A stretch of 64,000 nucleotides of DNA from an uncultured Candidatus Saccharibacteria bacterium (GCA_964448075.1 CAYUUR010000001.1:1785-65784), one strand, 5' to 3'. Positions 2,796 to 36,391 are shown, counted from the first letter of the stretch. Translations and numbers: made by a program. The notes: generated by a model from the sequence alone, not told the origin.

Positions 2796-3936
2796 AAAGT
2801 TAAAGATAGCCTATGTCCTTGATGATAGTCTCGATGGTACAGACGGTGTACAGCAGTATGTTCTGACCGTATCTGATTGGATGACTGCACAGGGTCACGA
2901 GTGTCATTTTCTAACGGGGCATACGACCAGAACTGACATTGCAAACGTGCATAGTACTACCAAGGTTCTCAAGGTACGCTTCAACAAGAATAGAATGGCT
3001 ACTCCACTACCTGCAAACAAAAAACGCCTCAGCACACTTCTAAGAGACCAGAGGTTCGACATTGTGCACGTACAAATGCCCTATAGTCCACTTATGGCTG
3101 GACGACTACTGCGCGCCCTACCAGGTAGTACTGCGGCTGTAGGTACGTTCCACATTTTGCCATTTGGGCGCCTTCATACGAGTGCAAATCGGCTACTCGG
3201 TAAAGTGAATAGCCGAACACTGCAGCGATTTGACACCATAGTAGCTGTTTCGCCAGCCGCACAGGAGTTTGCCAAGCATGCCTATGGCGTAAACTCTGAA
3301 GTCTTGCCAAACGCTGTGAATATGCAGAAGTTTCTTACTAAAAAACCGATGCATAATCGGCCACGCAAACTGAGAATCGTTTTCTTAGGGCGACTCGTAG
3401 AGCGTAAAGGGGCGCAAGAACTGCTCACCGCCCTTGATTACCTGCAAACGCACGAACCTGCCTTTATGGCGTCGGTAGAGTGCGTAATGGTGGGCAAAGG
3501 TAAAGACCTGAGACGCCTGCGAAATTACGTATCGAGCCATCATCTAGACCATACGGTCAGCTTTGCTGGGTTTATTGACGAAGCAGGCAAGCCTGCCTTA
3601 CTTGCCAGTGCTGATCTTGCTGTATTCCCAAGTCTTGGCGGTGAAAGCTTTGGGATTGTGCTCATAGAAGCGATGGCAGCGGGTGCTGGTGTAGTGCTTG
3701 GTGGCGATAACCCAGGCTATCGTTCTGTTCTGGGCGAGCGTCCAGAGTTGCTCTGTGATCCGCAGCAGACGCAAGCATTTGCTGAACGCATCAAGCTCTT
3801 GCTCACCGACCAGGAACTTCACAATAGATTGCATGCCTGGCAAACAAGAAAAGTCCATCAATACGACATAGCACAAGTCGGGCCAAAACTGCTATCATAC
3901 TACCAAGCAGCGATAAAGCAGCATAAACGGGGGTAA
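2773..3936 (+). CDS. glycosyltransferase family 4 (GT-B), paralog of preceding gene
   Basis: 387 aa; GESFGIVLIEAMAAG motif; overlaps upstream GT4 by 23 nt, so probably co-translated. Confidence 0.8.
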   Translation: MRRSDVAEKLKIAYVLDDSLDGTDGVQQYVLTVSDWMTAQGHECHFLTGHTTRTDIANVHSTTKVLKVRFNKNRMATPLPANKKRLSTLLRDQRFDIVHVQMPYSPLMAGRLLRALPGSTAAVGTFHILPFGRLHTSANRLLGKVNSRTLQRFDTIVAVSPAAQEFAKHAYGVNSEVLPNAVNMQKFLTKKPMHNRPRKLRIVFLGRLVERKGAQELLTALDYLQTHEPAFMASVECVMVGKGKDLRRLRNYVSSHHLDHTVSFAGFIDEAGKPALLASADLAVFPSLGGESFGIVLIEAMAAGAGVVLGGDNPGYRSVLGERPELLCDPQQTQAFAERIKLLLTDQELHNRLHAWQTRKVHQYDIAQVGPKLLSYYQAAIKQHKRG

Positions 3937-3941
3937 CAACC

Positions 3942-5042
3942 ATGAAGCTCTTCACAAAAAACAGTGGTTTAACCATCAATATATCAAGTCAGGCAATCGT
4001 TCGAGCCGTCGTTATCATTGCAATTACATTATTGGGTTTGCGTTTTCTAACTCAAATCAGCTATCAGCTGACGCTCATCTTTACTGCGGCTTTTTTGGCG
4101 TTAGCGCTTAACCCCGCAGTATCATGGATTGCCGACCGTTTACGAAGTAAAAGTCGGGCTCAAGCGACCGGTATGGCCTATATACTCGTTATTCTTGTTC
4201 TAGGCGCATTTGTGGCTTTTGTGGTACCACCAATTGTGCGTCAAATGGTTGACTTTGCGAAGGACATACCAAGTACGATCAGTACAGTCAGCGACCAGGA
4301 TTCTCCGGTCGGTAATTTTGTACGCCGCAATAATCTGCAGGACGAAATCGATAGTATTAGTCAGGAACTCAAAGGCAAAGTTAACCAAGTACCAAGCACG
4401 GTCATAAGTACGGCGAGCTGGGTTGGTGGTGCCGTGTTCTCTACAATTACCGTGATAGTACTATCATTCATGATGCTTATTGAAGGGCCGCGCTGGTTTG
4501 AACGCCTATGGCAGGTTCAACCGAAAGAAAAACGAAAGCACCGACGTGATCTGGCGCACCGTATGTATCGGGTTGTTACATCGTACGTGAACGGACAGGT
4601 ATTGATTGCGCTCATCGCTTCATTGTTTTCTATGGCAGCTTTACTCATTGCTAGTACTATCACCGATTCATCGATAAATGTGGTGGCTATGGGCGGTATT
4701 GTGTTCTTGCTTGGGCTCATACCGTTAATTGGTAATACCATCGCGGCAGCGATAGTTATACTGGTTTCGTTATTTAGTTCGCTTGCCTTAGCGATAACGA
4801 TGGCAGTGTTCTTTATTGTCTATCAGCAAGTCGAGAATGCTACTCTCCAACCATATATTCAGGCCAAGGGAAATCAACTCACGCCATTAATTGTCTTCGT
4901 AGCAGCGCTGATTGGCGCTGGCTTTGGTGGTATTCTTGGCGCCTTTGTTGCTATCCCAGTAGCTGGTTGTATACGTGTACTTATGGAAGAGCACTTTGGT
5001 GAGTTTGATGCTAACGCAGAGCCAGTCAAACAAACAAAATAG
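3942..5042 (+). CDS. AI-2E (PerM/UPF0118) family transporter
   Basis: 366 aa polytopic membrane protein with AI-2E-like arrangement of TM segments and a central soluble loop. Confidence 0.6.
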   Translation: MKLFTKNSGLTINISSQAIVRAVVIIAITLLGLRFLTQISYQLTLIFTAAFLALALNPAVSWIADRLRSKSRAQATGMAYILVILVLGAFVAFVVPPIVRQMVDFAKDIPSTISTVSDQDSPVGNFVRRNNLQDEIDSISQELKGKVNQVPSTVISTASWVGGAVFSTITVIVLSFMMLIEGPRWFERLWQVQPKEKRKHRRDLAHRMYRVVTSYVNGQVLIALIASLFSMAALLIASTITDSSINVVAMGGIVFLLGLIPLIGNTIAAAIVILVSLFSSLALAITMAVFFIVYQQVENATLQPYIQAKGNQLTPLIVFVAALIGAGFGGILGAFVAIPVAGCIRVLMEEHFGEFDANAEPVKQTK

Positions 5043-5044
5043 CT

Positions 5045-6433
5045 TTATCTAATTCTTGACCAGATTTGACCGTGTTCAGTATCACGTACAACAATCCCCT
5101 GCTCTTTGAGCGCATCGCGTAGCTCATCGGACTTAGCCCAGTCCTTTTCAGCACGAGCTTTGCTCCGGTCGGCAATCAGCCGCTTCTGATCATCGGCAAT
5201 GTCGTTGTGCCCCGTGAGGTTAATCCCAAGGTATGAATTAATAGCTTTAACGGCTGCTTCTATACCTGCCTTAGAGAATTGCAAATCAAGCACCTGATTC
5301 ACATAAGCGTCGATACTAGCCACGGCAGCTGGTGTGTTTAGGTCGTCAGCGAGTGCGTGTTTGATGTTATCTTCCAGCGTTGTTTGAACAGTTGTGTCTT
5401 CTGACATGTCCTCTTGCCACTGCAAGTCGACAGCCTCAAACCATTTGTTAAGCCGGTTCTGAGATGCAGCGAGAATGTCCCAAGTGAAGTTGCCTTCTGT
5501 ACGATAGTGTTTGCTTAGTACGAGCAATTTAAATGCAGCAAGGTCGTATTTTTTATCAATGATGTCCTGAAGCGTGTATATGTTGCCAAGCGACTTACTC
5601 ATTTTGGTGCCGTCAACTTTAATATGGTTTGCATGCAACCAAATATTAGCAAACTGTTTGCCCGTTATGGCCTCCGTCTGTGCAATTTCATTTACGTGGT
5701 GCACGGGAATATGATCAATCCCGCCTGTATGTATATCGATTTGGTCGCCAAGCAGCTCACGTGCCATTACAGAACACTCTAGGTGCCATCCGGGGAAGCC
5801 TTTACCCCACGGACTGTCCCATTCCATATCACGCTTTTCTGCTGGGTCTGAGAACTTCCAGACAGCAAAGTCTGTGGGGTTCCTTTTGCCGGTGTCAGCG
5901 ACGCGTGCCCCAAAACGCAGCCCTTCAATATCAAGCTTGGCGAGTGCGCCATAATCTTCGAGTTTACTCGTGTCAAAGTAGACGCCGTCGTCGAGCTTGT
6001 ACGTGTAGCCCTTTGTTTCTAGTTGTTCCACAAATGCAATCTGCTGTGGGATATACTCGGTTGCTCGTGGCATAAAGCTGGGACGAATCAATCCCAAGAG
6101 CTCAAAGCCTTCATGCTCGGCAATCTTAATGTATTTGTCTGCAACATCCCATGCGGTCGTACCTTCTTTAAGAGCGCTTTTGAGCATTTTGTCCTCACCT
6201 GCATCCTCATCTGATGTCAGGTGGCCAACATCGGTGATGTTTTGGACACGTTTGACGTCATACCCTTCGGCTTTTAGTGCTCGGGTCAGAACATCCCAGT
6301 ATATGTATGACACCCAATTGCCAATGTGCGGTTGACTATAAACGGTCAGACCGCAGGTATATACGGTGACAGTTTTATTGTTAATTGGTGTTAGTGTTGA
6401 TTGGTCACGGGTTAAGGTGTTGAATAATTTCAT
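5045..6433 (-). CDS. cysS: cysteine--tRNA ligase
   Basis: 462 aa; class I motifs HIGN (PHIGNW) and KMSKS; CysRS-like throughout. Confidence 0.95.
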   Translation of the reverse strand: MKLFNTLTRDQSTLTPINNKTVTVYTCGLTVYSQPHIGNWVSYIYWDVLTRALKAEGYDVKRVQNITDVGHLTSDEDAGEDKMLKSALKEGTTAWDVADKYIKIAEHEGFELLGLIRPSFMPRATEYIPQQIAFVEQLETKGYTYKLDDGVYFDTSKLEDYGALAKLDIEGLRFGARVADTGKRNPTDFAVWKFSDPAEKRDMEWDSPWGKGFPGWHLECSVMARELLGDQIDIHTGGIDHIPVHHVNEIAQTEAITGKQFANIWLHANHIKVDGTKMSKSLGNIYTLQDIIDKKYDLAAFKLLVLSKHYRTEGNFTWDILAASQNRLNKWFEAVDLQWQEDMSEDTTVQTTLEDNIKHALADDLNTPAAVASIDAYVNQVLDLQFSKAGIEAAVKAINSYLGINLTGHNDIADDQKRLIADRSKARAEKDWAKSDELRDALKEQGIVVRDTEHGQIWSRIR

Positions 6434-7449
6434 GATTGCTTTTCCTGTTGAAGTTTGTCGAGTAGTTCAGTCGCAACCTTAATACATTCTGACTTTATCT
6501 CACTGAACGGTCGACCGTCTTGCACCTTGAATCCACTGGCATATTTGTGGCCACCGCCACCAAAATGTTCTGCTAGTTCACCGCCAATCGCGTATCCATA
6601 ATTGCAGCGGATTTTAGCAGTAACCTTGTTGTCCTTGTAGATTTTAAAGGCAATAGCTACTTGTGTGTCAGTCCCCATCCGCATGTCGTCTATTACCAAC
6701 ATAGAAGGGTTGTAGAGTGGGCTGTACTTTTGAATCTCTTCCCATGGTATGTCGACTGTGGCAATGCGATTGTCGGCCGCATAGGCTATCCGCTGCAGCA
6801 ATGCACCTTTGTAATTAAGCAGCTCCGGACTCTTGCGCATCATGGCACGACGGTCGTTTTCTAGGCGAGCCAGAACAACGCCATCCTCAACGAGTTCTGC
6901 GATGACATGAATGCTGCGCGGGGTTGTTCCTTCGCTAACAAGACCCAAGCTGTCAGACATGATAGACATGGCTAGCATTTCCTTGGCGGTCAGGTTGAGC
7001 TTCCAATCAAGCTGCAGTGCAAGTTCGTATATAACCTCGCCAGTAGCAACAGCCGGTTTATTGCATGTAACTGTAGCAAAAGAAATCTTGTCATCGGTTT
7101 GATGATGATCTATCACAATGCACGGTTTTGTTTTCAGCGCGTGTTTTTGACCGGAGCGTTCTGCAGAATCAAACAGGTCATCGGCGCTCATATCAACGAT
7201 GATACTGGCGTCAAACTTCTTAGGGATTTCTTTCTGCACTCTGTCCCAGCCGGGGATGTAACGAAGATACGTTGGAACATCAACGCCACAGTACATAACA
7301 GGCTCAATACCCATGTCACCAAGTATCTGCTCGAGCGCCAGGCTACTCGCCAGACTATCACCGTCTGGATTGTCCGCCTGGAGAATGACTACGCACTGAG
7401 CATCTGATAACGTTTTACCAATTTCGGCAGCTTCTGGATAGATGATCAT
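6430..7449 (-). CDS. nrnA: DHH/DHHA1 phosphoesterase (NrnA-type oligoribonuclease/pAp phosphatase)
   Basis: 339 aa; DHH motif (VIDHHQT) and DHHA1 GGGH motif; 4-nt overlap with cysS. Confidence 0.7.
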   Translation of the reverse strand: MIIYPEAAEIGKTLSDAQCVVILQADNPDGDSLASSLALEQILGDMGIEPVMYCGVDVPTYLRYIPGWDRVQKEIPKKFDASIIVDMSADDLFDSAERSGQKHALKTKPCIVIDHHQTDDKISFATVTCNKPAVATGEVIYELALQLDWKLNLTAKEMLAMSIMSDSLGLVSEGTTPRSIHVIAELVEDGVVLARLENDRRAMMRKSPELLNYKGALLQRIAYAADNRIATVDIPWEEIQKYSPLYNPSMLVIDDMRMGTDTQVAIAFKIYKDNKVTAKIRCNYGYAIGGELAEHFGGGGHKYASGFKVQDGRPFSEIKSECIKVATELLDKLQQEKQS

Positions 7450-26293: not shown

Positions 26294-26393
26294 CTATACG
26301 AGTTATGCAGTTCTGAGCCCGATCAAAATGTCACGCCATTTTGTCGGCGCGAAATATGGGGTCCCCACAAAATCAACGATTTTGAGGGGTGTC

Positions 26394-27962
26394 TTAGGGG
26401 AGTAGCTCAGTTGGTAGAGCACCGGTCTCCAAAACCGGGTGTCGCAGGTTCAAGTCCTGTCTCCCCTGCCATATAGAACTTTCAGTAAGTTTCAGCACAG
26501 TTGCAAACGGTTCGTTAGGTGTAAAACGGACCGTTTTGCCTTTCAGTGAGAGGTTCGATAGCACAATACTGATAATCTGCCGCTTTTCTTCATCGTTAGC
26601 AACTTCAAAGATTTTATCGCCGTGTTTGAATAGCTGTAACAGATACGAAGCTGTCGCATAGAAGTTTTGATCTGCGTCTTCTAGCCGTGCTAATTGACCG
26701 TCTATCCTTGCTATTTCTTGGTCGTACCGACCTTTGTTTTCGTTATAATCATCGGGAGTAATACTACCGCTAGTCATTGCATCAAAGGCAACACGAATAC
26801 GGTGCTTGTAGTCATCACGGTCAGTCCGTAGCTTTTTGAGCATATCGTCTTGGAAGCGGTTTTCGGCTTCGTGTGATGACTTTACTTCTGTTTCAAGACG
26901 AGCAATTTCATCGGCAGGTATGTTCTTGAAGGCTTTGAACACTGCCATAAACTGGGCGGTCAAATCAACTTGGGTTACATAAGTAATCTTCTTGTGTTTT
27001 TTTCGGGCATTGGTGCAATGATAGAAATGGTAGCTATGCTCATTTCCGTTCTTCTGTTTCTTTTCACGATATTCAGTCGTTACCGCACAGCCACAGTCTG
27101 CACAGGTTATCAGACCACGATAGATAAACGGTATGCCAATAAATCGCCGTTTACCTAGTCGGTTACCGTCTAGCACATCCTGGACCATTTCAAACAGCTC
27201 ACGACTGACGAGCTGTTGGTAAGTGTGTACATATTCTTTACCGCCACCTTTCTTATCAACGATTATACCGATATAAAACTTATCACGCAGTATGTCGTGA
27301 ACACGGCTTTTTGACAGATTAACCTTCAATTCTTCGGCTATCTTGCGGCGTAGACTTTCGCAAGAATACGCACCAGTCGCAAATAGCGTGAACATACGCT
27401 TAACTACTTCGCTGTTAAAAGCATCGGGCTGAACCGATTTTTGTCGTGTGCCTATGGTTACATTGTTGTAGCCGTATGGAGCACCCCACGGCAGTTCGCC
27501 CCGTTCTAGCTTGGATAGTTTGGTGTTCATACCATCTTCTTTGATGCGTTCAAGCTGCGACTTGGCAAACATTACTTTAAAGTCCCATTGGATAATTTCA
27601 TTTGATCGGCTTTCTTGCGACAACACAAGCCTATCATCAATAAAGTGCAGCTTTACTTTGTGTTTGGTGCGAAGCTCATCAATCAATACGCTGTCACGAA
27701 AGTTGCGTGTTATACGGTCTACCCGAAACGAAACAATATCTGTTACCTTGTTTTTCTTAGCAAAACTAACCATTTCCTGAAACTTATTGCGAGCCTTGTA
27801 CTCACTGCCAGTTTCACTAATTTTGAAAGTTTTGATGACATTCAAGCCGTTGGTTTTGGCGTATTCTTTTGCACGGGGTAGCTGTATTTCTTCTAGCGAC
27901 AAACCTTCTGTTTCTTGCCGCTTGGTGGATACACGGGCAAAAATGATGGTCTTGTTGCTCAT
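26394..27962 (-). CDS. large serine recombinase (integrase)
   Basis: 522 aa; resolvase catalytic domain (IIFARVSTKRQ, VDRITRN), recombinase domain, Cys-rich zinc ribbon (CADCGC...YHCTN), long coiled-coil region. The last 25 codons are antisense to tRNA-Trp. Confidence 0.88.
   Translation of the reverse strand: MSNKTIIFARVSTKRQETEGLSLEEIQLPRAKEYAKTNGLNVIKTFKISETGSEYKARNKFQEMVSFAKKNKVTDIVSFRVDRITRNFRDSVLIDELRTKHKVKLHFIDDRLVLSQESRSNEIIQWDFKVMFAKSQLERIKEDGMNTKLSKLERGELPWGAPYGYNNVTIGTRQKSVQPDAFNSEVVKRMFTLFATGAYSCESLRRKIAEELKVNLSKSRVHDILRDKFYIGIIVDKKGGGKEYVHTYQQLVSRELFEMVQDVLDGNRLGKRRFIGIPFIYRGLITCADCGCAVTTEYREKKQKNGNEHSYHFYHCTNARKKHKKITYVTQVDLTAQFMAVFKAFKNIPADEIARLETEVKSSHEAENRFQDDMLKKLRTDRDDYKHRIRVAFDAMTSGSITPDDYNENKGRYDQEIARIDGQLARLEDADQNFYATASYLLQLFKHGDKIFEVANDEEKRQIISIVLSNLSLKGKTVRFTPNEPFATVLKLTESSIWQGRQDLNLRHPVLETGALPTELLP
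26396..26471 (+). tRNA. tRNA-Trp (anticodon CCA), CCA end encoded
   Basis: Hand-folded cloverleaf: acceptor AGGGGAG/CTCCCCT, D arm GCTC/GAGC, anticodon arm CCGGT-CTCCAAA-ACCGG, T arm GCAGG-TTCAAGT-CCTGT, discriminator G, CCA. Confidence 0.9.
26450..26469 (+). repeat. attL core (TCAAGTCCTGTCTCCCCTGC)
   Basis: Identical 20-mer at 32983-33002; flanking bases differ on both sides. Confidence 0.85.
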
Positions 27963-28147
27963 ATATCAACCTTGCTGTCTTCTATCAGCTTATGAACATC
28001 ATCTATCTTGAAAAGGTACGACTTACCGACTTTGTAGGCGGTAATCTTGCCTGATTTTATCCATCTATAAATGGTTATTTTGCTAACTTGGAGCAATTCG
28101 CAAACATCTTCAATCTTGTAGAATTTGCTATCTTTCATACTTATCAT
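27959..28147 (-). CDS. excisionase-type helix-turn-helix DNA-binding protein
   Basis: 62 aa; YKIEDVCELLQVSKITIYRWIKSGKI resembles the Xis/AlpA (HTH_17) family; 4-nt overlap with the recombinase start. Confidence 0.6.
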   Translation of the reverse strand: MISMKDSKFYKIEDVCELLQVSKITIYRWIKSGKITAYKVGKSYLFKIDDVHKLIEDSKVDI

Positions 28148-28163
28148 TATATATCATTCCTTA

Positions 28164-29321
28164 TCACTTATCTAAATATCTTTGTAACTTTACAGGCTCA
28201 AACTTTTGTAACTGGCTTTCTATAATGTCAAAGCTGGCAATTTTTCGTCTAGCGAAGTTTAGGCTGTTTATCTTCTTGTTCAGGTTATACCATTGTTGGC
28301 TAGTGAAGTTACCGATATTACGGACATCACGGCTTCCTGTGGTTTCAAGCAATGTCTTATACGCAACAGCTTCCATAATCGTACCTATTTGCGTTCGTGG
28401 ATTTTGTATTGATAACTCAGTCAATAGTGCAGGTGCGGTTTTATCAGTCAGCGAGATAGCTGGATAGGTTTCACGCAGTTTGGTTATTTCGTACCGCAAC
28501 ATCTTCTTGGCGGTGGTTTCGTTGAACAGATCACGGAAAGTTAAACTATCAGTCTGTAAACCTGCATCTTTGAACGACTTTTTGATCTGTGGTCTACCAA
28601 TGTACCGTGCTTCAACACGCACCATTTCAAACGGACTGGCAAGCGGTTTTTCATCAAATAGTGATAGCTGGCAGTAATAGTCTTTTTCTAGCAAGCCTTT
28701 TTCGGTAACTTTAGACTTTGTGTGTTCTTTTAGCTTGTCATAGATACACAAGCCCCACTTACTGCTGTAAAAGTGCATTGCTTCGCCGTTGTTGATGTAC
28801 TTTTGCCCGTCACTTTTCTTGCGTGTCGTATAGTTGCATTTTTCTAAGTCGGTTATGATGGCGTGAGCAGTTGAATAGTCGGTCAGCGTTATGTTTTTAG
28901 AATAGTGTATGGTGCTGACCATTGCGTCTTTAAGCGTGTTCGGACCAGTAACTACCACGCCGATATTGTGTAGTTTGCGTTGTAGCTGGACGCACAGGTA
29001 ATCAAAATCGCTTTGCGTTATTTCATTAAAATTGTCGTTATGAACGACCTTTTGTGCAGAAAACTCAATGTTGAGAGTGATGGGTACGCCACCACGGCGT
29101 ACTGCCTTAATAAGCGTCAGGCGGGGTATATAGTTGCCGTCAGCCTTTTCTTTGGCGGTTGGGTTGCGTTCTACCAAAAAAGCCTTCTTTGTGCCGAACT
29201 GAACAAATGGCGGTCTAAAGAAATTGGTTACATCTGTCGCAAACTGTTTGTAGCAACCTTCCATCAGCTCAAAGTCTTTACGCCATTCTAGCGTTATTAC
29301 TACTGTATCTACCATTTTCAT
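28164..29321 (-). CDS. putative rolling-circle replication initiator (Rep_trans / phage gpII-like)
   Basis: 385 aa. N-terminal MVDTVVITLEW and the motif GLCIYDKLKEH resemble the xRIYDKxxE box I recall from this family. From memory only. Confidence 0.35.
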   Translation of the reverse strand: MKMVDTVVITLEWRKDFELMEGCYKQFATDVTNFFRPPFVQFGTKKAFLVERNPTAKEKADGNYIPRLTLIKAVRRGGVPITLNIEFSAQKVVHNDNFNEITQSDFDYLCVQLQRKLHNIGVVVTGPNTLKDAMVSTIHYSKNITLTDYSTAHAIITDLEKCNYTTRKKSDGQKYINNGEAMHFYSSKWGLCIYDKLKEHTKSKVTEKGLLEKDYYCQLSLFDEKPLASPFEMVRVEARYIGRPQIKKSFKDAGLQTDSLTFRDLFNETTAKKMLRYEITKLRETYPAISLTDKTAPALLTELSIQNPRTQIGTIMEAVAYKTLLETTGSRDVRNIGNFTSQQWYNLNKKINSLNFARRKIASFDIIESQLQKFEPVKLQRYLDK

Positions 29322-29583
29322 TGCTCACTACTTCTTCAAACTTTATTGCTACTGCTTCTTCTATGGCTAAGCCCACCTGTTTGTTGATGGGATAGTACAC
29401 ATCAATGTCCTTGCCAATCATCTTGCGTGTTGGGTACACAAGCCTATAACCGCCATTCGGTCTGGTAAACACACCGACTGAACCGCAGTAGATGGCTTCG
29501 TACAGCACAAAGCTGGCAAAGCCAACCAAGCCGTTATTGGCTTTGACTGGCACTATCTGCACTTCGCTGATCGCTTTCATCAT
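29278..29583 (-). CDS. SpoVG-like nucleic-acid-binding protein
   Basis: 101 aa; aligns by eye with B. subtilis SpoVG (VxxVxx...G..GFASFVL...VYPTRK...YYPIN vs AIASITL...AMPSKR...THPIN). Confidence 0.55.
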   Translation of the reverse strand: MMKAISEVQIVPVKANNGLVGFASFVLYEAIYCGSVGVFTRPNGGYRLVYPTRKMIGKDIDVYYPINKQVGLAIEEAVAIKFEEVVSNENGRYSSNNARMA

Positions 29584-29713
29584 CTACATCGCCTTCCTGT
29601 AATTTTTCAATTACTTTTTCCCGTTGATCTATCTTGATCAGCAATTTAGTCAGCAAAAGCATAGGGTCGGGATTGGCGACCTGTTCGTCTTGTTTCTTTG
29701 GTTGCTTGATCAT
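29534..29713 (-). CDS. possible 59-aa protein
   Basis: Own translation MIKQPKKQDEQVANPDPMLLLTKLLIKIDQREKVIEKLQEGDVDDES...; overlaps the SpoVG-like start by 50 nt; below ORF-track cutoff. Confidence 0.25.
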   Translation of the reverse strand: MIKQPKKQDEQVANPDPMLLLTKLLIKIDQREKVIEKLQEGDVDDESDQRSADSASQSQ

Positions 29714-29743
29714 ACCCCGATGGTATGAAAAAGCTATTTAGCC

Positions 29744-30565
29744 TTATTTTGGCTGTTTTTTGGGCGGAGCAATATATTTTGGGTTAAGCCGAACTGATTT
29801 TGTAGTGAGTTTGAATAAATCAGGTATATCTGTGTATTTTTCTACACGGGCATTTATCTTCTTGATAGCGTCATACACCTTATTCCAGTCAGTCGGCTTT
29901 TGTAAGTCAGGTAAATAGTCGTATAGGCTGTCCCAGGCTTGCTGCAAGTCTTTAAGCTGCCAAAGTTCGTGCGGCTTTTCAAATATCAGCTTGCAGATAG
30001 CTGGTTGATATTCTGCATTCTTCTTAAAGCGTATGGCTTCGTCAGCGAAGAATATGGTGCGTTTGTCGGCATCGTAGCTGGCTGGTTCGGTGGTAGTAGA
30101 TTTGGCTGGTAATATGTGTTCACTACTTTCTTCATAGTCAAAAATGATACGCCGAAGTTCAGCTACACGGTCACTAAAATCATCAAGTATATCTTCTAGT
30201 TTCTGCTCATTTTTGGTCAGTTCGTTTATTGATAAATGCCTAGCACCTACCGTATGAGGGTCGCTGAATTGCATTTTATAGCGTGTCTTGCCAATCCTAT
30301 CCAGCACAGCTTCAACATCCTTTATCCAACCTTCTACGAACTGCTGGGCTGCCCGTAAAACTTCTATAGTTTTTTCGTGTTCTGGTTCTGGTTCAGGGTA
30401 TCCAAATGTAGGAATACCAAACGGACCAGTCTTTACTATCTGTGGCGTGGACATTATATGAGGCATTCTGGTTGGCACTAGGGACGCATTTAACTTGCTA
30501 AAGTCATTGCTAACCTTATTACCTTCTTCATACAGTTTTACCAGTTCAGCTACATCGTCTTTCAT
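29744..30565 (-). CDS. hypothetical protein (273 aa), element-encoded
   Basis: Long ORF in the element backbone; C-terminal third might be a winged-helix domain (guess). Confidence 0.5.
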   Translation of the reverse strand: MKDDVAELVKLYEEGNKVSNDFSKLNASLVPTRMPHIMSTPQIVKTGPFGIPTFGYPEPEPEHEKTIEVLRAAQQFVEGWIKDVEAVLDRIGKTRYKMQFSDPHTVGARHLSINELTKNEQKLEDILDDFSDRVAELRRIIFDYEESSEHILPAKSTTTEPASYDADKRTIFFADEAIRFKKNAEYQPAICKLIFEKPHELWQLKDLQQAWDSLYDYLPDLQKPTDWNKVYDAIKKINARVEKYTDIPDLFKLTTKSVRLNPKYIAPPKKQPK

Positions 30566-30654
30566 ACACCTTCAAATCCTGCTTTTATTATACAAAATGA
30601 TGATTGCGTTTGATAACGATTGATAAGTTATTCGTGGTAAGATTGTAAGAAGTT

Positions 30655-31605
30655 ATGTCATTAAAATCACCACAAAATAGCTTAAAGAATGCCTACGGTA
30701 CATTTTTGTTCAAAGACGGTGGTTACCTTCCAGGCATACTGCTAATAGCCCATAAGCTTCGTGAGCTTAGCGATGGGGATACTAAGCTTATATGTCTTCA
30801 CACAAACGATGTTGAGCAGTCTGTACTTGAAGCCATTGCCACAATTTATGATGAAGTGCAGTCTGTTGAACATCTTAGATTTGGTCAAAATCGGGTCGGT
30901 AGGCAAACGCCTTTGCCATTTATGTTCACCCGCTTTCGTTTTTTGCAGCTCAAACATATAGATAAGGTTTTGGTTTTTGACGCAGATATGCTGCCACTGG
31001 CTGACTATGATGGTCTATTTGAGTTGGACGCACCAGCAGGTGTAATCAATGAGAGTAAAGAAAATATGAAGGGTGACAATCATACCGCCGAAAAGTTAGA
31101 TAAATGGGAATGGCATAAGAAATATGAGCCACTGTACGGACACGGCAAGCTGTTGCCAAAAGATATGACTGATAAACCAATCTTACAGCCTGAACAAAAT
31201 ATGGGTATAAATGGTGGTCTAATGCTATTGCAGCCATCGGAAGCTGACTTTGAAGCTTTTTCTAGCTGGTGTAAACAGCCCGACAATCAGGCTGCCATTG
31301 AGAAAATGCCTTGGCCTGATATGCAAGCAGTCACGGCTTTTTATTCTGGGAAATGGATAAATATAGACGCAAAGTATTTGGGTTTATATGGTTATCCAAA
31401 CATATCATCGTTAAATGGTATTCATTTCATAGGACCAAAGCCTTGGCAATGGCGAGCCAAAGGTTTTGCATATCGCTTAAATAACTATCCTGACTATAAG
31501 CTATGGGCAGATGAGTATTTGAAGATGTGTGAACAGCGACCCGAATTACTTAAATACAAGCAGCTTGCAAACTTGAAGCAGCAAATAGAAGCTGAAATTA
31601 AATAG
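30655..31605 (+). CDS. glycosyltransferase family 8 (glycogenin/LgtC-like), element cargo
   Basis: 316 aa; N-terminal AYGTFLF..GYLPG, DxD motif VFDADML, GT8-like C-terminal region. Confidence 0.65.
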   Translation: MSLKSPQNSLKNAYGTFLFKDGGYLPGILLIAHKLRELSDGDTKLICLHTNDVEQSVLEAIATIYDEVQSVEHLRFGQNRVGRQTPLPFMFTRFRFLQLKHIDKVLVFDADMLPLADYDGLFELDAPAGVINESKENMKGDNHTAEKLDKWEWHKKYEPLYGHGKLLPKDMTDKPILQPEQNMGINGGLMLLQPSEADFEAFSSWCKQPDNQAAIEKMPWPDMQAVTAFYSGKWINIDAKYLGLYGYPNISSLNGIHFIGPKPWQWRAKGFAYRLNNYPDYKLWADEYLKMCEQRPELLKYKQLANLKQQIEAEIK

Positions 31606-31695
31606 TAAAAAACGCTTGGTATTTTTACAGCCGTAAAAATTCGGCATTGATACGGCGGAGTACCTACAACAGATATAAAGGGTGACCACCCCCCC

Positions 31696-32646
31696 CTAGG
31701 TTACTTCTTTCGGTACTCCTTCATAAAAAGGTAGTAAATCTTCCAAATACTCTTTACGGGTGGCATAGGCATAGTCTTTAGACCACCGAACAAGCAGTAG
31801 GTTACTTTGAACTATCATTTCGTCATCTGTTATTGCGTGTCTTTTTTGTTTCTTACCAGATTTTATTGGGTCTATAAGCTCAATAAGTATTTCGGGTGTT
31901 AGGGCAAGATAGTGCCTTCTTTGGGCGATGTGATTGCTGTACATCTTTTCAACCATCGTTTTGCCAGTTTTGTTGAACACTTCAACCACTGGTGTATCAG
32001 TGGTTATGAATTTTTTTGAGCCTTTGGCTAAATAAAACCGCCATTTCTTTATCGAAAACCATCTGTAAAACTCTTCGCATTTGGCAATAAGTTGTAAATG
32101 ATTAACGTTGTTATCAAAATCTAGTTCGTATTCGCCACTTTCAAGGGTCTTTCTAGCGTCTTCAATCTGTTCATCAGTTACCTTATACCCTTTTTCTGCC
32201 AAAGCTTCTTTAGCACCATCTGTAAAGTTCGGGTGCGAAGCCATTAGCGTAGTCATTTGCTTCATACCATCAGCCATAGTCTTGTTCACCTGTCTTCGCA
32301 TATGTGGACTTCTAATCCATAAAGAAGCCATAAACCACGCCAGAATATCTAGCTGATGGTCAGTTAGTAGTCTGTAACTCCATATTGCATCAACTATATT
32401 GTTATATTCTTTGGCAAACTTATCTTCAATTTCACCGAAGAATTGTTCAAACACTTGGCTGGTTTCATCTTCTTTGCCAGTTTCAACAGCGTAATAGAAG
32501 TCGGCATAACAAACACCACTATACGGCTGTGCCTTTATGATTTCCCCTTTTTTAATATCTAAAGTCTGTAACATATTATCAACTGCAAATCGCTTGAAGT
32601 AAAAACGGGGTGCGAAATGTTGCTTCTTAGTGATCTGTTTTGTCAT
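31696..32646 (-). CDS. DUF4238-like protein, element cargo
   Basis: 316 aa; N-terminal KKQHFAPRFYFKRFA resembles the H-x-x-P-x-F-Y-L-x-x-F start I associate with DUF4238 (from memory). Confidence 0.45.
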   Translation of the reverse strand: MTKQITKKQHFAPRFYFKRFAVDNMLQTLDIKKGEIIKAQPYSGVCYADFYYAVETGKEDETSQVFEQFFGEIEDKFAKEYNNIVDAIWSYRLLTDHQLDILAWFMASLWIRSPHMRRQVNKTMADGMKQMTTLMASHPNFTDGAKEALAEKGYKVTDEQIEDARKTLESGEYELDFDNNVNHLQLIAKCEEFYRWFSIKKWRFYLAKGSKKFITTDTPVVEVFNKTGKTMVEKMYSNHIAQRRHYLALTPEILIELIDPIKSGKKQKRHAITDDEMIVQSNLLLVRWSKDYAYATRKEYLEDLLPFYEGVPKEVT

Positions 32647-32780
32647 ACTGCTATTTTACAGCCGCATAAGTCATAAGCACAGGTGTATAGCCGTGTCGGT
32701 CTAGTATTGGTTTAAGTATTTCGGATATAATTTCAAAAGGCAGTTCGGGGTTACATATTGCGTCCTTTAGGGGCTGCCAA

Positions 32781-32812
32781 AATAAAAGGATCCCGTCTGG
32801 GGTCCTTTTATT
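32781..32812. other. 14-bp perfect/G-U hairpin (terminator- or ssDNA-origin-like) near the right end of the element
   Basis: AATAAAAGGATCCC-GTCT-GGGGTCCTTTTATT; A/T runs on both sides. Confidence 0.5.
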
Positions 32813-32982
32813 TTGTTGGTGAGCCAAGACTCGGTTCTGCGTCGTAGATTTTGCTTTAGCAAAAGATACTTGTCGCTGGTGCATTCGTGAAGTGCTGCGC
32901 ACAGAAACTTGTTTCGAGCACAGCACAATACGGCCACGGGCTGACTGTCTCCTGGAAATAGGGACAATTGCCAGCGCACTAG

Positions 32983-33002
32983 TCAAGTCCTGTCTCCCCT
33001 GC
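32983..33002 (+). repeat. attR core (TCAAGTCCTGTCTCCCCTGC), partial tRNA-Trp 3' end
   Basis: Identical to 26450-26469; followed by TT instead of CA. Confidence 0.85.
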
Positions 33003-33031
33003 TTCGCAAAATCCTGTTAAACTAAAAAACA

Positions 33032-33592
33032 ATGAATCAACTCCCAACATTTATAACTGGAAATCAGAACAAGGCTGATTACCTTTCTAGGCAGCTTGGA
33101 TTTGACCTTGATCATCAAAAAATTGAGCTTGATGAACTCCAGTCAACAGACTTGCATGTGATTGTTGAGCACAAGTTACGTCAGGCTTATGAAGTTTGCG
33201 TAAAGCCCGTGCTTGTCGAAGATGTAAGTCTTGTTTTTAATGCACTCAATGACTTACCAGGACCGTATATCAGATGGTTCGTTGATCACGCCGGCGATGA
33301 AGCCTGCTGTCGGATGCTTGATGGTTTTGATGACCGTAGTGCAGTTATTCGCTGCACGTTTGGTTATTATGATGGAGACGCTATAGAGTTCTTCGATAGT
33401 GAGCTGCCTGGTACGATATCCGACACACCCCGTGGGAGTAATGGTTTCGGGTTTGATAGGTTCTTTATAAACGAAGGTTACACAATAACGCGTGCTGAAA
33501 TGACACAAGAAGAAAACGAACGAACCTACGCAGAACTAATGAAGCCATTTGCGCAAGTGCGTAGTTTTCTGCAATCACAAAGTAACGAGTAA
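33032..33592 (+). CDS. rdgB: non-canonical purine NTP pyrophosphatase (RdgB/HAM1 family)
   Basis: 186 aa; FITGNQNK start and C-terminal GFGFD motif. Confidence 0.8.
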   Translation: MNQLPTFITGNQNKADYLSRQLGFDLDHQKIELDELQSTDLHVIVEHKLRQAYEVCVKPVLVEDVSLVFNALNDLPGPYIRWFVDHAGDEACCRMLDGFDDRSAVIRCTFGYYDGDAIEFFDSELPGTISDTPRGSNGFGFDRFFINEGYTITRAEMTQEENERTYAELMKPFAQVRSFLQSQSNE

Positions 33593-33597
33593 ATAGC

Positions 33598-33630
33598 AAA
33601 AGCCCGCAGAGTAAATCTACGGGCTTTGTT
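33598..33630. terminator. bidirectional terminator between rdgB and rpf
   Basis: 8-bp stem AAAGCCCG/CGGGCTTT between convergent genes. Confidence 0.6.
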
Positions 33631-33649
33631 TACGTCTTTAGCATAGACG

Positions 33650-34285
33650 CTATCTCAAACCGAGTTTTGCGCTACATGCTGGCCAGTGACCCCAGCCGCC
33701 GCTACCTTTAAGCATTTCAGCGCGACGGATTTGCTCTGCCTTGCTTGCTTGGTGTGGATAGCCGCTGCCGCCAACTCCGCGCCAACTACTCAAGCTAAAC
33801 TGCAGGCCTCCGTAGTAACCGTTGCCAGTGTTAATTGACCAGTTACCGCCTGATTCACAGGCAGCGAGCCTATCCCACGCACTTCCAGTGCTCGCAGTAA
33901 CTTTTGGCGCAACATAAGCTTTGCGTGGTGTATTGCGAACAGTTGTTTTTGGTGACTGTACTGGCGTTGATGCTGGAACAACTGCATCACTCGGCAATTC
34001 TCGCCGTTTAAGTTTTTCCGACTTACTTGGAATGCGGATTTTGTCACCTGGATAGATGAGATCCGGGTGCTTTATCTTTTTGTTAGCGTAGAACAGTCGT
34101 TCGTATGTTGAACGATGTTTTTTGGCGATAATCGATAAGCTATCGCCTGGCTTAACCGTAACAACCTTTTTGGTTTCTACGGGCTTTGGTTTCTGATTTG
34201 ATTCCTGTGCATGCACAGATGAGCCGCTGGACGTCAAGATAATTGCGCCCAAAAACAGACCCACTATTGTTGCGATTACTCGCAT
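33650..34285 (-). CDS. secreted LysM + Rpf (resuscitation-promoting factor-like transglycosylase) protein
   Basis: Start set at ATG 34283-34285 (SD AGGGAGG; signal/TM MRVIATIVGLFLGAIIL). LysM (VKPGDSLSIIAKK...YPGDKIRIP) and Rpf domain (WDRLAACESGGNWSINTGNGYYGGLQF). Confidence 0.85.
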   Translation of the reverse strand: MRVIATIVGLFLGAIILTSSGSSVHAQESNQKPKPVETKKVVTVKPGDSLSIIAKKHRSTYERLFYANKKIKHPDLIYPGDKIRIPSKSEKLKRRELPSDAVVPASTPVQSPKTTVRNTPRKAYVAPKVTASTGSAWDRLAACESGGNWSINTGNGYYGGLQFSLSSWRGVGGSGYPHQASKAEQIRRAEMLKGSGGWGHWPACSAKLGLR

Positions 34286-34464
34286 AGTAGCCTCCCTTAT
34301 ACCCTGTTGTAATGTACCCTTATTGCTATTTAAAAGTTTCGCAGCCGACGCCGCGTGGGTCATTTAGGTAAGTATCTTTTCCACCTCACGAGTAAAAAAG
34401 ACACAATGACTAGCCTACTACACCCACATGTAGTGTCAAGCCCCTTACGCCTAACCATATAACT

Positions 34465-34494
34465 AAAAAGCTCCATAACAGATGTCATGGAGCT
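34465..34494 (-). terminator. intrinsic terminator after rpmG
   Basis: Stem AGCTCCAT/ATGGAGCT followed by U5 on the minus strand. Confidence 0.65.
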
Positions 34495-34515
34495 TTATGC
34501 GCAGTAATGTAATAT

Positions 34516-34713
34516 TTACTTTGTTACTTGATTTCGGCCAAGATTTTTCTTGGTTTCTGTATACCAAGTATGCTTTCGCAACACTGGATTATACTTTTTC
34601 AGACGCAGTTTGTCTGGAGTATTCATAGTGTTTTTCTTGGTGTAGTAGTGTCGGTGACCCGTCTCTTCACACACTAGACCAATTACTTTGCGTTTATCGC
34701 CTTTTTTTGCCAT
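34516..34713 (-). CDS. rpmG: 50S ribosomal protein L33
   Basis: 65 aa; KVIGLVCEETGHRHYYTKKN...LRLKKYNPVLRKHTWYTETK matches the L33 pattern. Confidence 0.9.
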   Translation of the reverse strand: MAKKGDKRKVIGLVCEETGHRHYYTKKNTMNTPDKLRLKKYNPVLRKHTWYTETKKNLGRNQVTK

Positions 34714-34919
34714 TATTTCTTCACCTCACTTTTCTTTGGAATGATGATTGCAAGTACAACATAGGCTACAACACCTGGGAATAGTCCAGTGATAACTGTA
34801 CCGAGCGCCCATCCAGCACGTACGAGTGTTGGATCAACGTCAAAATACTCAGCAATACCCGCACATACACCGTCGAGTTTGCGATCATCTTCTGATTTGT
34901 ATAGTATCTTCTTTGCCAT
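34713..34919 (-). CDS. PspC-domain membrane protein
   Basis: 68 aa; LYKSEDDRKLDGVCAGIAEYFDVDPTLVR plus one TM segment. Confidence 0.8.
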   Translation of the reverse strand: MAKKILYKSEDDRKLDGVCAGIAEYFDVDPTLVRAGWALGTVITGLFPGVVAYVVLAIIIPKKSEVKK

Positions 34920-34955
34920 TTACAACATTCTAACAGATTATAGTTGATATTTCAA

Positions 34956-35032
34956 TGGAGCCGTTGTAATCTTCGATTTCACCTGGCCTCCTTGGAAAAT
35001 ACGAGCAAACACGGTTGTTCAGTATTGTCCTC
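34956..35032 (-). repeat. tRNA-Thr-trailing structured unit u' (ends in a copy of the tRNA-Thr(GGU) acceptor 3' strand)
   Basis: Minus-sense GAGGACAATAC-TGAACAACCGTGTTTGCTC-GTATTTTCC-AAGGAGGCC..AATC-GAA-GATT-ACAACGGCTCCA; the last 12 nt match the tRNA 3' end at 35033-35044. Confidence 0.6.
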
Positions 35033-35107
<75 letters not shown>

Positions 35108-35137
35108 ACATTCAGTGGACTATGATAGCATTTTTAG

Positions 35138-35521
35138 CTATTTTCTGAAAGCTCTCTCTGAAGGTAGTTTCAGAGTATACAAGGGTGCAATCTCCTCGAC
35201 AACTGCCGCCTGCTCAACAATAAGCCAAGGCTTAACAGTGCTGGTTAATCCCCGCCGGACAATACTAAAGTATCTACTGTCTTCATCGGACATTTCGGTT
35301 ATTAATGGCTCAAAAAGCATTTCTGCGTCATCTGCACCGAGTCTTAGGTATTCAGCTGGCTGTGAATGTACGAAACACACCAATCTGCCTAAAGCATGCT
35401 CTTTATCCTGGGCAACTATAGTAAAGTCGACAGCTCGAACATCATCCTCGACCCTGCCCCAATACCATTTCTCGCGTTCATCCATTATATATACAGTAGA
35501 ACGGTTCACCATGCTTAACAA
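35138..35521 (-). CDS. hypothetical acidic protein (about 115-127 aa) between tRNA genes
   Basis: ORF-track start is TTG; ATG candidates at 35512 and 35485; no SD; no recognisable domain. Confidence 0.4.
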   Translation of the reverse strand: MLSMVNRSTVYIMDEREKWYWGRVEDDVRAVDFTIVAQDKEHALGRLVCFVHSQPAEYLRLGADDAEMLFEPLITEMSDEDSRYFSIVRRGLTSTVKPWLIVEQAAVVEEIAPLYTLKLPSERAFRK

Positions 35522-35679
35522 CTATAAACACCAATATTCTGTTGTAATTTCAATCTCGACAGTGTTGGATGAAAACACTTCCGTGGTTTTTTGAAAAAGT
35601 AAGAATTCGCTTAACAGATAAAAAGACCTCCGATGAGGCCTTAATTCAGTATGGTGCAGCATCATGGCTGAGATCAGAC

Positions 35680-35907
35680 CTATTTTAGACCTGAGCCCGC
35701 AGCACAGGTTGAGCCAATGACTTTACAGGACATTTCGCTTTTATGAGGATTTCTCACATATACTTCTGTCAGTTCACACTCTTGAACGCCGCCACATGTC
35801 ACGACAAGCTCGTCAGCTCCATCTCTTGTCATAAATTCTTCTACCGCTGGGTCGCAATTCCTATAGATAAGACAGTTATCCCATTCGATTGTCTCTTGCG
35901 TTCTCAT
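35680..35907 (-). CDS. hypothetical Cys-rich small protein (75 aa) between tRNA genes
   Basis: First ATG at 35905-35907. An extended -10-like TGATATACT ends about 7 nt upstream, so possibly leaderless. Confidence 0.35.
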   Translation of the reverse strand: MRTQETIEWDNCLIYRNCDPAVEEFMTRDGADELVVTCGGVQECELTEVYVRNPHKSEMSCKVIGSTCAAGSGLK

Positions 35908-35927
35908 TAGCAAAGTATATCAAATCT

Positions 35928-35951
35928 AAAAGACTTCCGAAGAAGTCTTTT
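35928..35951 (-). terminator. intrinsic terminator after tRNA-Tyr
   Basis: Perfect 10-bp stem AAAAGACTTC/GAAGTCTTTT with a 4-nt loop, 15 nt after the tRNA 3' end. Confidence 0.7.
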
Positions 35952-35965
35952 GAGCATAAGCGATT

Positions 35966-36051
35966 TGGTGCAGGGAGAGGGATTCGAACCCCCGAAGGCA
36001 TAAGCCAGCAGATTTACAGTCTGCCGTGTTTGACCGCTTCACTACCCCTGC
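35966..36051 (-). tRNA. tRNA-Tyr (anticodon GUA), long variable arm, CCA encoded
   Basis: Hand fold: anticodon arm GCAGA-CTGTAAA-TCTGC, long extra arm, T loop TTCGAAT. Confidence 0.88.
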
Positions 36052-36158
36052 ATATGAAGGAGCCGGAGCTCCTTCTTTGTTAAAACACTTCTTGAAACTA
36101 CACTCACATTGTAATCTCTTTTGATTAGGATTCCTCGCAATGGTCCTAATCAACTCAA

Positions 36159-36237
36159 TTCTGGAGCCGCCTGTAGCCTTCGGCTTCATCCGGCTTCCTC
36201 GAAAACATATTGCCAGCAAGCTGTCATATGTTTTCTG
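36159..36237 (-). repeat. tRNA-Thr-trailing structured unit u1
   Basis: Minus-sense GAAAACATAT-GACAGCTTGCTGGCA-ATATGTTTTC-GAGGAAGCC..AGCC-GAA-GGCT-ACAGGCGGCTCCA; the last 13 nt match the 3' end of tRNA-Thr(UGU). Confidence 0.6.
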
Positions 36238-36314
36238 TTGAGCCGCCTGTAACCCTTTGGGATGCAGTTGCTCCCTCAGAAAGTTCAAGCCAGCAAGCTG
36301 TCAGAACTTTCTTC
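36238..36314 (-). repeat. tRNA-Thr-trailing structured unit u2
   Basis: Minus-sense AGAAAGTTC-TGACAGCTTGCTGGCTT-GAACTTTCT-GAGGGAGCA..CCC-AAA-GGG-TTACAGGCGGCTCA; directly abuts the tRNA-Thr(UGU) 3' end. Confidence 0.6.
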
Positions 36315-36391
36315 TGGAGCCGCCTGTCGGATTCGAACCGACGACCTACGGTTTACAAAACCGTCGCTCTAACCAACTGAGCTAAGGCGGC
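36315..36391 (-). tRNA. tRNA-Thr (anticodon UGU), CCA encoded
   Basis: Hand fold: GCCGCCT acceptor, anticodon arm ACGGT-TTTGTAA-ACCGT, T arm GTCGG-TTCGAAT-CCGAC. Confidence 0.9.

Follow-up and report, generated by a model that had tools for sequence, protein, structure and literature searches.

The locus considered here raises the question of what becomes of a serine integrase when the attachment site that it recombines lies within its own reading frame. It belongs to a 64,000-nucleotide stretch of DNA from an uncultured Candidatus Saccharibacteria bacterium (GCA_964448075.1 CAYUUR010000001.1:1785-65784), referred to below as the window, in which an open reading frame (ORF) of 522 amino acids (26394..27962, minus strand) runs antisense through an entire tRNA-Trp gene and ends ...WQGRQDLNLRHPVLETGALPTELLP / ...SIWQGRQDLNLRHPVLETGALPTELLP. 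The original prediction described this frame and its stop at 26394 as they are present in the sequence, and proposed that the recombinase ORF crosses the attachment site in frame at both junctions, giving the two states of the element different C-termini. That proposal is borne out, as circular relatives carry the integrase gene (int) at full length and integrated ones carry it split at the hexamer TGGCAG. The best explanation of the whole, which we regard as very probably correct on the sequence data, is a large serine recombinase (LSR) whose gene contains the element's attachment (att) site attP, whose target is the 3′ end of host tRNA-Trp, and which is re-tailed by integration. We are similarly confident that window 26466-32773 (6,308 bp, one copy of the hexamer counted) is the integrated copy of a small element, and this element, which has a rolling-circle-type replication gene and belongs to a family from Saccharibacteria (Candidate Phyla Radiation, CPR), is highly likely to have a free circular state as well. 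The data were sequences only.

Three Pfam domains, Resolvase (PF00239, 6e-14, residues 6-151), Recombinase (PF07508, 3.6e-09) and Zn_ribbon_recom (PF13408, 9.6e-07), identify the ORF as an LSR. Its R10-S12-T13 motif is unchanged in 79 homologues, in which C287, C290 and C316 are likewise invariant. An AlphaFold2 (AF2) model of the homologue P0006 (mean pLDDT 85.5) places helices at 350-397 and 403-454 between zinc-ribbon strands, a predicted helical hairpin at residues 350-454 that is consistent with the LSR coiled coil. In its three domains and its predicted long helical insertion, the enzyme has the architecture of the phiC31, Bxb1, A118 and SPbeta integrases. Among the ORFs of the 6.3-kb element, ORF calls and Pfam searches found serine-recombinase domains only and no tyrosine integrase. 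All of the Pfam domains of int fall within residues 1-499, which are kept as one ORF upon integration; only 40 C-terminal codons are split off.

The position of the crossover follows from an empty chromosome of the same host. The Ham1 protein encoded on the right flank (33032-33592) occurs with identical sequence on two other contigs, of which one, L033 from a second sample (SRR16481186), matches window 26415-35072 at 100% and is an occupied copy. The other (L034, sample SRR34217542), which opens with TCGCAGGTTCAAGTCCTGTCTCCCCTGCCA|AAATAAAAGGATCCC…, matches the window at 100% in two pieces: nt 1-30 correspond to 26442-26471 and nt 25-282 to 32774-33031, the overlap being CTGCCA. L034 is thus an unoccupied attB site, the crossover lies within CTGCCA/TGGCAG and the element measures 6,308 bp. 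On the minus strand the junction hexamers occupy 26471-26466 at attL and 32779-32774 at attR, an offset of 6,308 bp (2 mod 3). Homology of the window element to L015, L018, L024, L026 and the circular L001 stops at 32779-32781 (blastn), and in a comparison of attL with attR at the ten loci analysed from both ends, single loci share 6-13 bp and TGGCAG is the sole block that recurs in every one. All four att sites can be read: attL and attR in the window, attB in the empty chromosome and attP in circular relatives. The predicted attP of the window element is …GAAAGTTCTATATGGCAGCCCCTAAAGGACGCAATATG…, with the circle joint …TATATGGCAGCCCCTAAAGGAC… and CCCCTAAAGGAC following TGGCAG. An attR placed at a 20-bp repeat, as first suggested, is off by 225 bp (a core ending at 33002, against a real hexamer at 32774-32779), and L034 has that repeat as well. 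The features on which the two protein forms depend are the following.

26396..26471, plus strand: host tRNA-Trp(cca) (ARAGORN; Rfam RF00005, 71.3 bits); its final six bases, CTGCCA (26466-26471), are common to the element and constitute the attL crossover hexamer.
26466..27962, minus strand: element-derived part of int, codons 1-499, ending in W498-Q499 (TGGCAG, 26471-26466).
26394..26465, minus strand: host-derived end of the integrated ORF, 23 antisense tRNA-Trp codons (GRQDLNLRHPVLETGALPTELLP) with the stop at 26394-26396.
32651..32773, minus strand: detached 3′ end of int, 40 codons (PLKDAICNPELPFEIISEILKPILDRHGYTPVLMTYAAVK) and a stop, which follow Q499 in the circle to give 539 amino acids.
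32774..32779, minus strand: attR crossover hexamer TGGCAG, the right end of the 6,308-bp element.

The reconstructed free form consists of codons 1-499 (27962-26466), the 40 codons at 32773-32654 and a stop at 32653-32651, and has 539 amino acids, the last 40 being PLKDAICNPELPFEIISEILKPILDRHGY... and the C-terminal end ...SIWQPLKDAICNPELPFEIISEILKPILDRHGYTPVLMTYAAVK. The integrated form joins the same 499 codons to 23 tRNA-antisense codons, giving 522 amino acids. Shared by both are the crossover codons W498-Q499 (TGGCAG), the antisense of the tRNA-terminal CTGCCA, the conserved W being simply antisense CCA. These two residues replace the peptide WQGRQDL that had been taken as core-encoded, and the free form of 614 amino acids is replaced by one of 539. 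Joining at the 20-bp repeats, 6,533 bp apart, does yield a 614-codon ORF, exactly as had been computed; of its 110-codon tail, the last 40 codons are genuine int coding sequence, but the Arg/Ser/Gln-rich 68 codons are host intergenic DNA. The integrated-state tails of relatives depend on the host tRNA sequence and can be as short as one residue (L015, WQG*) or as long as about 18 codons; judging from these, the integrated-state tail is without conserved information.

A search with the 614-aa reconstruction as query listed 120 homologues, all of which align to residues 1 to about 500 only. A W stands at the position of W498 in 101 of the 120, and beyond it about 65 of those listed run into tRNA-antisense peptides (…DSNPR…, …ESNHD…), 44 stop four or fewer residues past the W, and a few bear other tails. 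Annotated C-termini of these integrases that contain such peptides call for caution, being antisense tRNA, and many database C-termini of the clade are artefacts of the integrated state in this sense. Two homologues, P0003 and P0006 (77-79% identity), do have tails similar to the predicted one, ending WQG-L[KR]DALCNP[ED]LP…, but they match just the last ~35-40 residues of the 110 (WQP-LKDAICNPELPFEIISEILKPILDRHGY…). Set against the condition named as refuting the prediction, homologues without any similarity to the tail, this outcome favours it by half.

The contig that encodes P0006, 6,472 bp long and found in two samples (L001, L002), carries no tRNA and is circularly permuted with a 141-bp terminal overlap, which makes it a circle of 6,331 bp. 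Its int runs through TGGCAG into the tail as a 533-aa frame ending WQG-LKDALCNPELPFELISETLRPILERHGFVPLLA, and blastn places the left and right ends of the window element next to each other in L001. The same contiguity of int and tail holds for two further circular contigs, L023 and the perfect 5,208-bp-period concatemer L011, and for L004 and L019, which may or may not be circular. The 18.8-kb contig of L011/L027 (JGI1221J13441_10000452) is identical at 5628/5628 positions at a lag of 5,208 bp; this tandem repeat could be a small circle unrolled by the assembler, or a true concatemer such as rolling-circle replication would give. A degenerate pattern of the opening codons of the tail, run against metagenome contigs, picked out 18 loci, in every one of which the tail is preceded by TGGCAG and three nucleotides. 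The 3′ end of int lies directly upstream of the tail in L011/L027, L023 and L019, which are episomal forms, and unrelated host DNA occupies that place in the remaining loci.

Integrated copies present the complementary arrangement. L006, L007 and L008 (74-81% identity) are integrated in tRNA-Trp genes of different hosts, and their far ends consist of host DNA, often with a terminator hairpin, then TGGCAG and three nucleotides, then the tail in frame; int is split at TGGCAG in the window and in at least 13 integrated loci. The int genes of L001-L028 are 74-97% identical to that of the window over exactly residues 1-499. The junction variant of the window, TGGCAG-CCC-CTAAAGGAC, recurs in L015, L018, L024 and L026 with four unrelated flanks, and L015 (Int 97% identical to the window's, DNA 95% identical over 4.26 kb) sits in different host DNA. 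Every relative that retains the attL (int-side) end is located in tRNA-Trp(cca), with at least ten different tRNA sequences represented: a tRNA-Trp gene was called in L005-L008, L015, L017, L020, L021, L024 and L026, and antisense tRNA sequence was read at the contig end in L012, L014 and L025. In more distant relatives, with 41-46% identity, the integrase likewise runs antisense into a tRNA gene, that of tRNA-Gln(ctg) in L029 and that of tRNA-Asn(gtt) in L031; the L029 integrase ORF passes through the entire tRNA and beyond. The arrangement is thus a trait of the clade. On this comparative evidence, integration-dependent C-termini are real for this serine-integrase clade, the hosts of which, according to homologue names and the record title of L005, are Saccharibacteria and other CPR lineages.

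The 40-codon tail was recovered as 17 distinct variants at 24 loci, each following TGGCAG and three nucleotides in frame, and it occupies this position at every integrated copy, across at least ten host backgrounds. Its consensus is LKDAxCNPxLPxE...KP[IL]L[DE]..., with L4, D6, A7, C9, L13, E16 and P24 invariant in the alignment of WQx-tails. The first 8 codons, which probably overlap the presumed attP arm, have a pS of 0.335 and a pN/pS of 0.21. In the 20 codons beyond the att arm (codons 9-28), synonymous change is near-saturated (pS 0.715, pN 0.249) and pN/pS is 0.35; the value for the int body is 0.16. Saturated synonymous change together with a pN/pS of 0.35 argues for selection on the peptide and not merely on a DNA site, and the alignment thus indicates that purifying selection acts on a tail that would be made in the free form only. 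In the AF2 model of P0006, the tail forms short helices of modest confidence (pLDDT 58-75) behind a confidently modelled LSR body, and it is probably helical. Its C-terminal ends are -LA, -PA, -FA, -PT, -VK and -VG, and never -AA. A scan of viral contigs for the tail DNA pattern gave no match, and a profile search built on 14 tails returned only six ORF calls of 43-64 amino acids from 10 word-index candidates, a result that says little on prevalence.

Several observations weigh against our interpretation. Circles were seen only for relatives with 77% Int identity and not for the window element itself. Scanning 14 attP and 10 attB sequences around every candidate central dinucleotide brought out no clear dyad symmetry (3-9 matches of 22, against ~5.5 expected), and strand exchange is located to within TGGCAG, not to a single dinucleotide. 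As regards the tail, the first 8 codons, in the presumed attP arm, are constrained at the DNA level, as their low pS shows; the pairwise pN/pS values lack phylogenetic independence; and the AF2 confidence is only 58-75. The tails of the window and L005 end …AAVK and …VVK where other relatives have …LA or …PA, and distant members of the clade have short or unrelated tails, so that the tail is not universally required.

In the mechanism to which the sequences point, the LSR recombines an attP inside its own gene, 40 codons ahead of the stop, with the extreme 3′ end of host tRNA-Trp, strand exchange taking place within TGGCAG. The tRNA is left intact because only the six shared bases are exchanged. 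Integration re-routes the int frame, from 499 + 40 = 539 amino acids in the circle to 499 + 23 = 522 in the chromosome, and leaves the 40 tail codons stranded 6.3 kb away at attR, behind the tRNA terminator hairpin. The tail-bearing form would be the one that acts on the free element in integration, and loss of the tail may alter the activity, directionality or stability of the enzyme in the integrated state, with excision probably also needing the adjacent HTH_17 excisionase-like protein. That the swap changes activity, direction or stability has precedents in the Mx8 integrase, the re-tailed mycobacteriophage repressors and the engineered fusions to an LSR C-terminus described below, but we hold it to be somewhat less likely than not. 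In the integrated state, any int transcription or translation would run head-on, in antisense, through tRNA-Trp (26394-26471), which could affect tRNA-Trp expression or need silencing of int.

The competing view that survives best accepts the same junction but regards the C-terminal swap as a neutral by-product, with the integrated and free enzymes functionally equivalent; we give it slightly less than an even chance. Int would simply overlap an attP that mimics the tRNA 3′ end, and the tail would be kept by constraint on the DNA site or by a generic need for a C-terminal cap. Such a view accommodates the integrated tails, which extend 1 to about 23 residues past Q499 and are unconserved, the 44 of 120 listed members that stop within four residues of the W, and the unrelated tails of distant members. 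The best-conserved tail codons (LKDAxCNP) also coincide with the expected ~25-bp attP arm, where pS is 0.335. Less easily explained are codons 9-28, which lie beyond any plausible half-site and combine the near-saturated pS of 0.715 and pN/pS of 0.35 with the invariant L13, E16 and P24. For directionality, the by-product view can call on an excisionase-like gene: the gene for the 62-aa HTH_17 protein overlaps the start of int by 4 nt and lies upstream of int in all relatives. This protein, on its sequence matches, is a candidate recombination directionality factor (RDF), and a classical factor of that kind is probably present under either reading of the tail swap. As this gene overlaps the int start in every relative, the original prediction's idea that direction could be controlled with no classical RDF loses force.

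If the swap is functional, the clade-wide placement of attP inside the int ORF (in the Trp, Gln and Asn cases) might serve as a built-in state sensor, with the ~35-40-aa tail tuning direction, synapsis or stability, a possibility that we consider unlikely at present. The tail could act, for example, on the coiled-coil/zinc-ribbon region where RDFs act, or as a degron, and the chromosomal enzyme with its tRNA-antisense tail would behave differently. An RDF artificially fused to an LSR Int is used to drive excision (PMC5737554), and attachment of an RDF at the Int C-terminus has been described (PMC11722253; bioRxiv 10.1101/2025.05.02.651858); C-terminal appendages can thus set direction. Were the state sensor real, it would amount to a cis-encoded layer of directionality undescribed for serine integrases.

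It is improbable that the window copy is a decaying, immobile relic whose two protein forms no longer alternate in its lineage. Truncated derivatives with the last 99 int codons and the tail do exist (L017/L020, L026, L024), and the tails of the window and L005 have a divergent C-terminal end. Yet the backbone ORFs of the window are all intact, int has a pN/pS of 0.08 against L005, an element with 97% identical Int occurs in a different host (L015), and public data contain the site of this one host both occupied (window, L033) and empty (L034), implying recent gain or loss. The deletion derivatives L017/L020 (1.2 kb), L026 (3.4 kb) and L024 (5.2 kb), which of int retain only the last 99 codons and the detached tail, lie between intact attL- and attR-like junctions in tRNA-Trp.

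There remains the 20-bp repeat from which the original prediction started. The exact copies of TCAAGTCCTGTCTCCCCTGC lie at 26450-26469 and 32983-33002, 6,533 bp apart, and the right-hand copy contains the TTG start of a 111-aa open frame (32651..32986, minus strand), in which a Pfam search found no family. Outside the element, the host DNA is arranged as follows.

32780..32982, plus strand: host DNA outside the element, a hairpin at ~32780-32815 and then a ~170-nt intergenic stretch.
32983..33002, plus strand: 20-bp partial copy of the tRNA-Trp 3′ end, the same as 26450-26469, a pre-existing host feature.

The hairpin predicted near 32781-32812 is real, with a stem of 17 bp instead of 14, but it belongs to the host: in the fold its stem begins directly after the tRNA CCA, and it is likely the tRNA-Trp terminator. 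A simple terminator scan missed it, the T-run being part of the stem, and the fold revealed it. L034 carries this hairpin, the ~170-nt stretch and the outer repeat without the element, which makes them host DNA. The 68-codon, 204-bp stretch between the two candidate junctions stays open in 3.3% of shuffles; with a factor of 1/3 for the frame, its being open and in frame has a chance of about 1%. L005, the locus most closely related (Int 92% identical, from a related host), has the stretch without the outer repeat, and its version of the 110-codon frame is interrupted by a TAA in the loop of the hairpin and shifted by two 1-nt indels that compensate each other. For the pair of window and L005, pN/pS is 1.02 over the 68 codons and 0.08 for int; taken with the TAA and indels, this marks the stretch as non-coding.

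That the 20-bp repeat is the att core of a 6,533-bp element whose excised form encodes 614 amino acids with a 110-aa tail (its circle joint being …TGGCAGGGGAGACAGGACTTGACTAGTGCG…, with int joined to …GGGAGACAGGACTTGACTAGTGCG…) has therefore next to no probability left, despite an exact repeat that matches the tRNA 3′ end and a 110-codon frame that is open and in frame: it is refuted by the empty site L034, where hairpin, 204-bp stretch and outer repeat are already present and 100% identical to the window, and stands further against the break in homology of five related elements and a circular relative at 32779-32781, the state of L005, the pN/pS of 1.02 and the first 70 tail residues, which are unmatched in any listed homologue. 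That core would also give attP and attB an arm in common over 14 bp, which would be unusual for a serine integrase. A perfect repeat of a tRNA fragment is thus no proof of where an element ends.

Two further candidates were rejected. Capture of the 204-bp stretch by the element in the lineage of the window and L005, where it is as conserved as neighbouring cargo, is ruled out by the empty site. Taking GGGAGACAG in L005 as an alternative attR would shift the crossover by ~9 bp relative to all relatives, and that stretch is host DNA. Over 26300-33200, Rfam at E<=1 found the tRNA only and no match for the 204-bp stretch. A scan of genome contigs with a 22-mer of the stretch found the L005 contig only, plus a chance match in L009 (high-GC Gemmatimonadaceae). 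In the empty chromosome, 204 bp separate tRNA-Trp from a perfect 20-bp repeat of its own 3′ end, an arrangement that looks like the scar of an older and different integration with a long core. L005 lacks window 32953-33650 (the outer repeat and the Ham1 gene), with the break at a CTGTCTCC(C) microhomology. Host positions 32816-32952 (~140 nt) are about 85-88% identical between the window and L005, above the flanking host genes (69-81%), and folding of the full 237-nt region gives z = -4.4, to which the hairpin contributes; downstream of tRNA-Trp, 32816-32952 might represent a small RNA or have a regulatory role.

Returning to the re-tailed LSR, its closest parallels come from tyrosine integrases. 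In Mx8, attP lies within int, and the prophage integrase (IntX, from IntP) has a new C-terminus and is still active but altered (PMC6070905). As in Mx8, the attP core here is inside the integrase ORF and integration makes a recombinant gene with a new 3′ end; unlike Mx8, whose enzyme is a tyrosine recombinase, the element uses an LSR and has a core of only 6 bp in common with its target, the final six bases of a tRNA gene; 40 codons are swapped, and the system is known from sequence. A second parallel is the integration-dependent immunity of mycobacteriophages, in which attP lies in the repressor gene and the viral form of the repressor has a C-terminal tag, tails ending in -AA being degradation signals (PMC8092301). 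There too, a phage protein is cut short or given a new tail at attL when the phage integrates at the 3′ end of a tRNA, and the properties of the protein depend on the integration state. There, however, a tyrosine integrase re-tails the repressor and the tails are -AA, whereas here it is the integrase itself that is re-tailed, with tails ending mostly in -LA or -PA.

In fuselloviruses of the SSV1 type, attP is also in int and the target a tRNA, and integration parts the tyrosine integrase gene into two non-functional pieces; in the present LSR, by contrast, the catalytic and DNA-binding domains (residues 1-499) remain intact. Canonical phage LSRs have attP in intergenic DNA beside int and mostly target protein-coding genes. 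The enzyme described here would resemble them in the little identity between attP and attB and in the separate small directionality factor that is expected. The element differs from the classical tRNA-gene island in that the direct repeat of the tRNA 3′ end does not mark the ends, the element ending 204 bp inside the repeat.

In the open-access literature we found no serine integrase with attP inside its own ORF, no such tRNA 3′-end targeting and no description of this CPR element family, which is weak evidence of novelty. The principle is known for tyrosine integrases such as Mx8, to which the cases that we found were confined; new, as far as we can tell, are the class of enzyme, a tRNA-end target of 6 bp and conservation across a clade. 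Serine integrases are major tools of genome engineering, and their choice of direction is an active structural question. The family offers a natural case in which the catalysed reaction rewrites the C-terminus of its own enzyme, with state-dependent variants that can be tested in the serine family, and extends the targets of serine integrases to tRNA 3′ ends with an overlap of only 6 bp. Little is known of the mobile elements of CPR bacteria, and the family adds one that is small and common in Saccharibacteria and other members of that group.

Beyond int, the element has a conserved backbone and a variable slot, as listed here.

27959..28147, minus strand: 62-aa HTH_17 excisionase-like protein (Pfam PF12728, 3.4e-15; PHROG excisionase families, 5.9e-11).
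28164..29321, minus strand: 385-aa replication initiator-like protein with a Phage_CRI / G2P N-terminal domain (Pfam PF05144, 3.8e-07; PHROG replication protein).
29278..30565, minus strand: backbone genes for a SpoVG-like protein of 101 aa and proteins of 59 aa and 273 aa without assigned function.
30655..32646: variable cargo, a glycosyltransferase (GT) family 8 gene (30655-31605, plus strand) and a DUF4238 gene (31696-32646, minus strand), both from Pfam.

The backbone order of int, HTH_17, Phage_CRI-like initiator, SpoVG-like gene and two genes of no assigned function is the same in L001, L004-L008 and L033, and the initiator-like gene is conserved in all relatives. The cargo slot, between the backbone and the detached tail, holds GT8 and DUF4238 in the window, a SHOCT-domain protein (5399-5965) in L001, and an SWI2/SNF2 helicase with an N6_N4 DNA methylase (about 3100-7300) in L006-L008, the last pair resembling a defence module. 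The tail's stop codon (TAG, 32653-32651) lies 4 nt ahead of the DUF4238 start codon (32646). In a free circle int and DUF4238 would adjoin and be co-oriented, and once integrated DUF4238 stands behind the host tRNA terminator. An exact-sequence look-up of the AAA_33 protein on the left flank returned no record. Near the site, a cluster of tRNA-Thr(ggt), tRNA-Tyr(gta) and tRNA-Thr(tgt) genes (window 35033-36391) is syntenic in L005, L008, L012, L017, L020, L024 and L026, so that their hosts are related Saccharibacteria.

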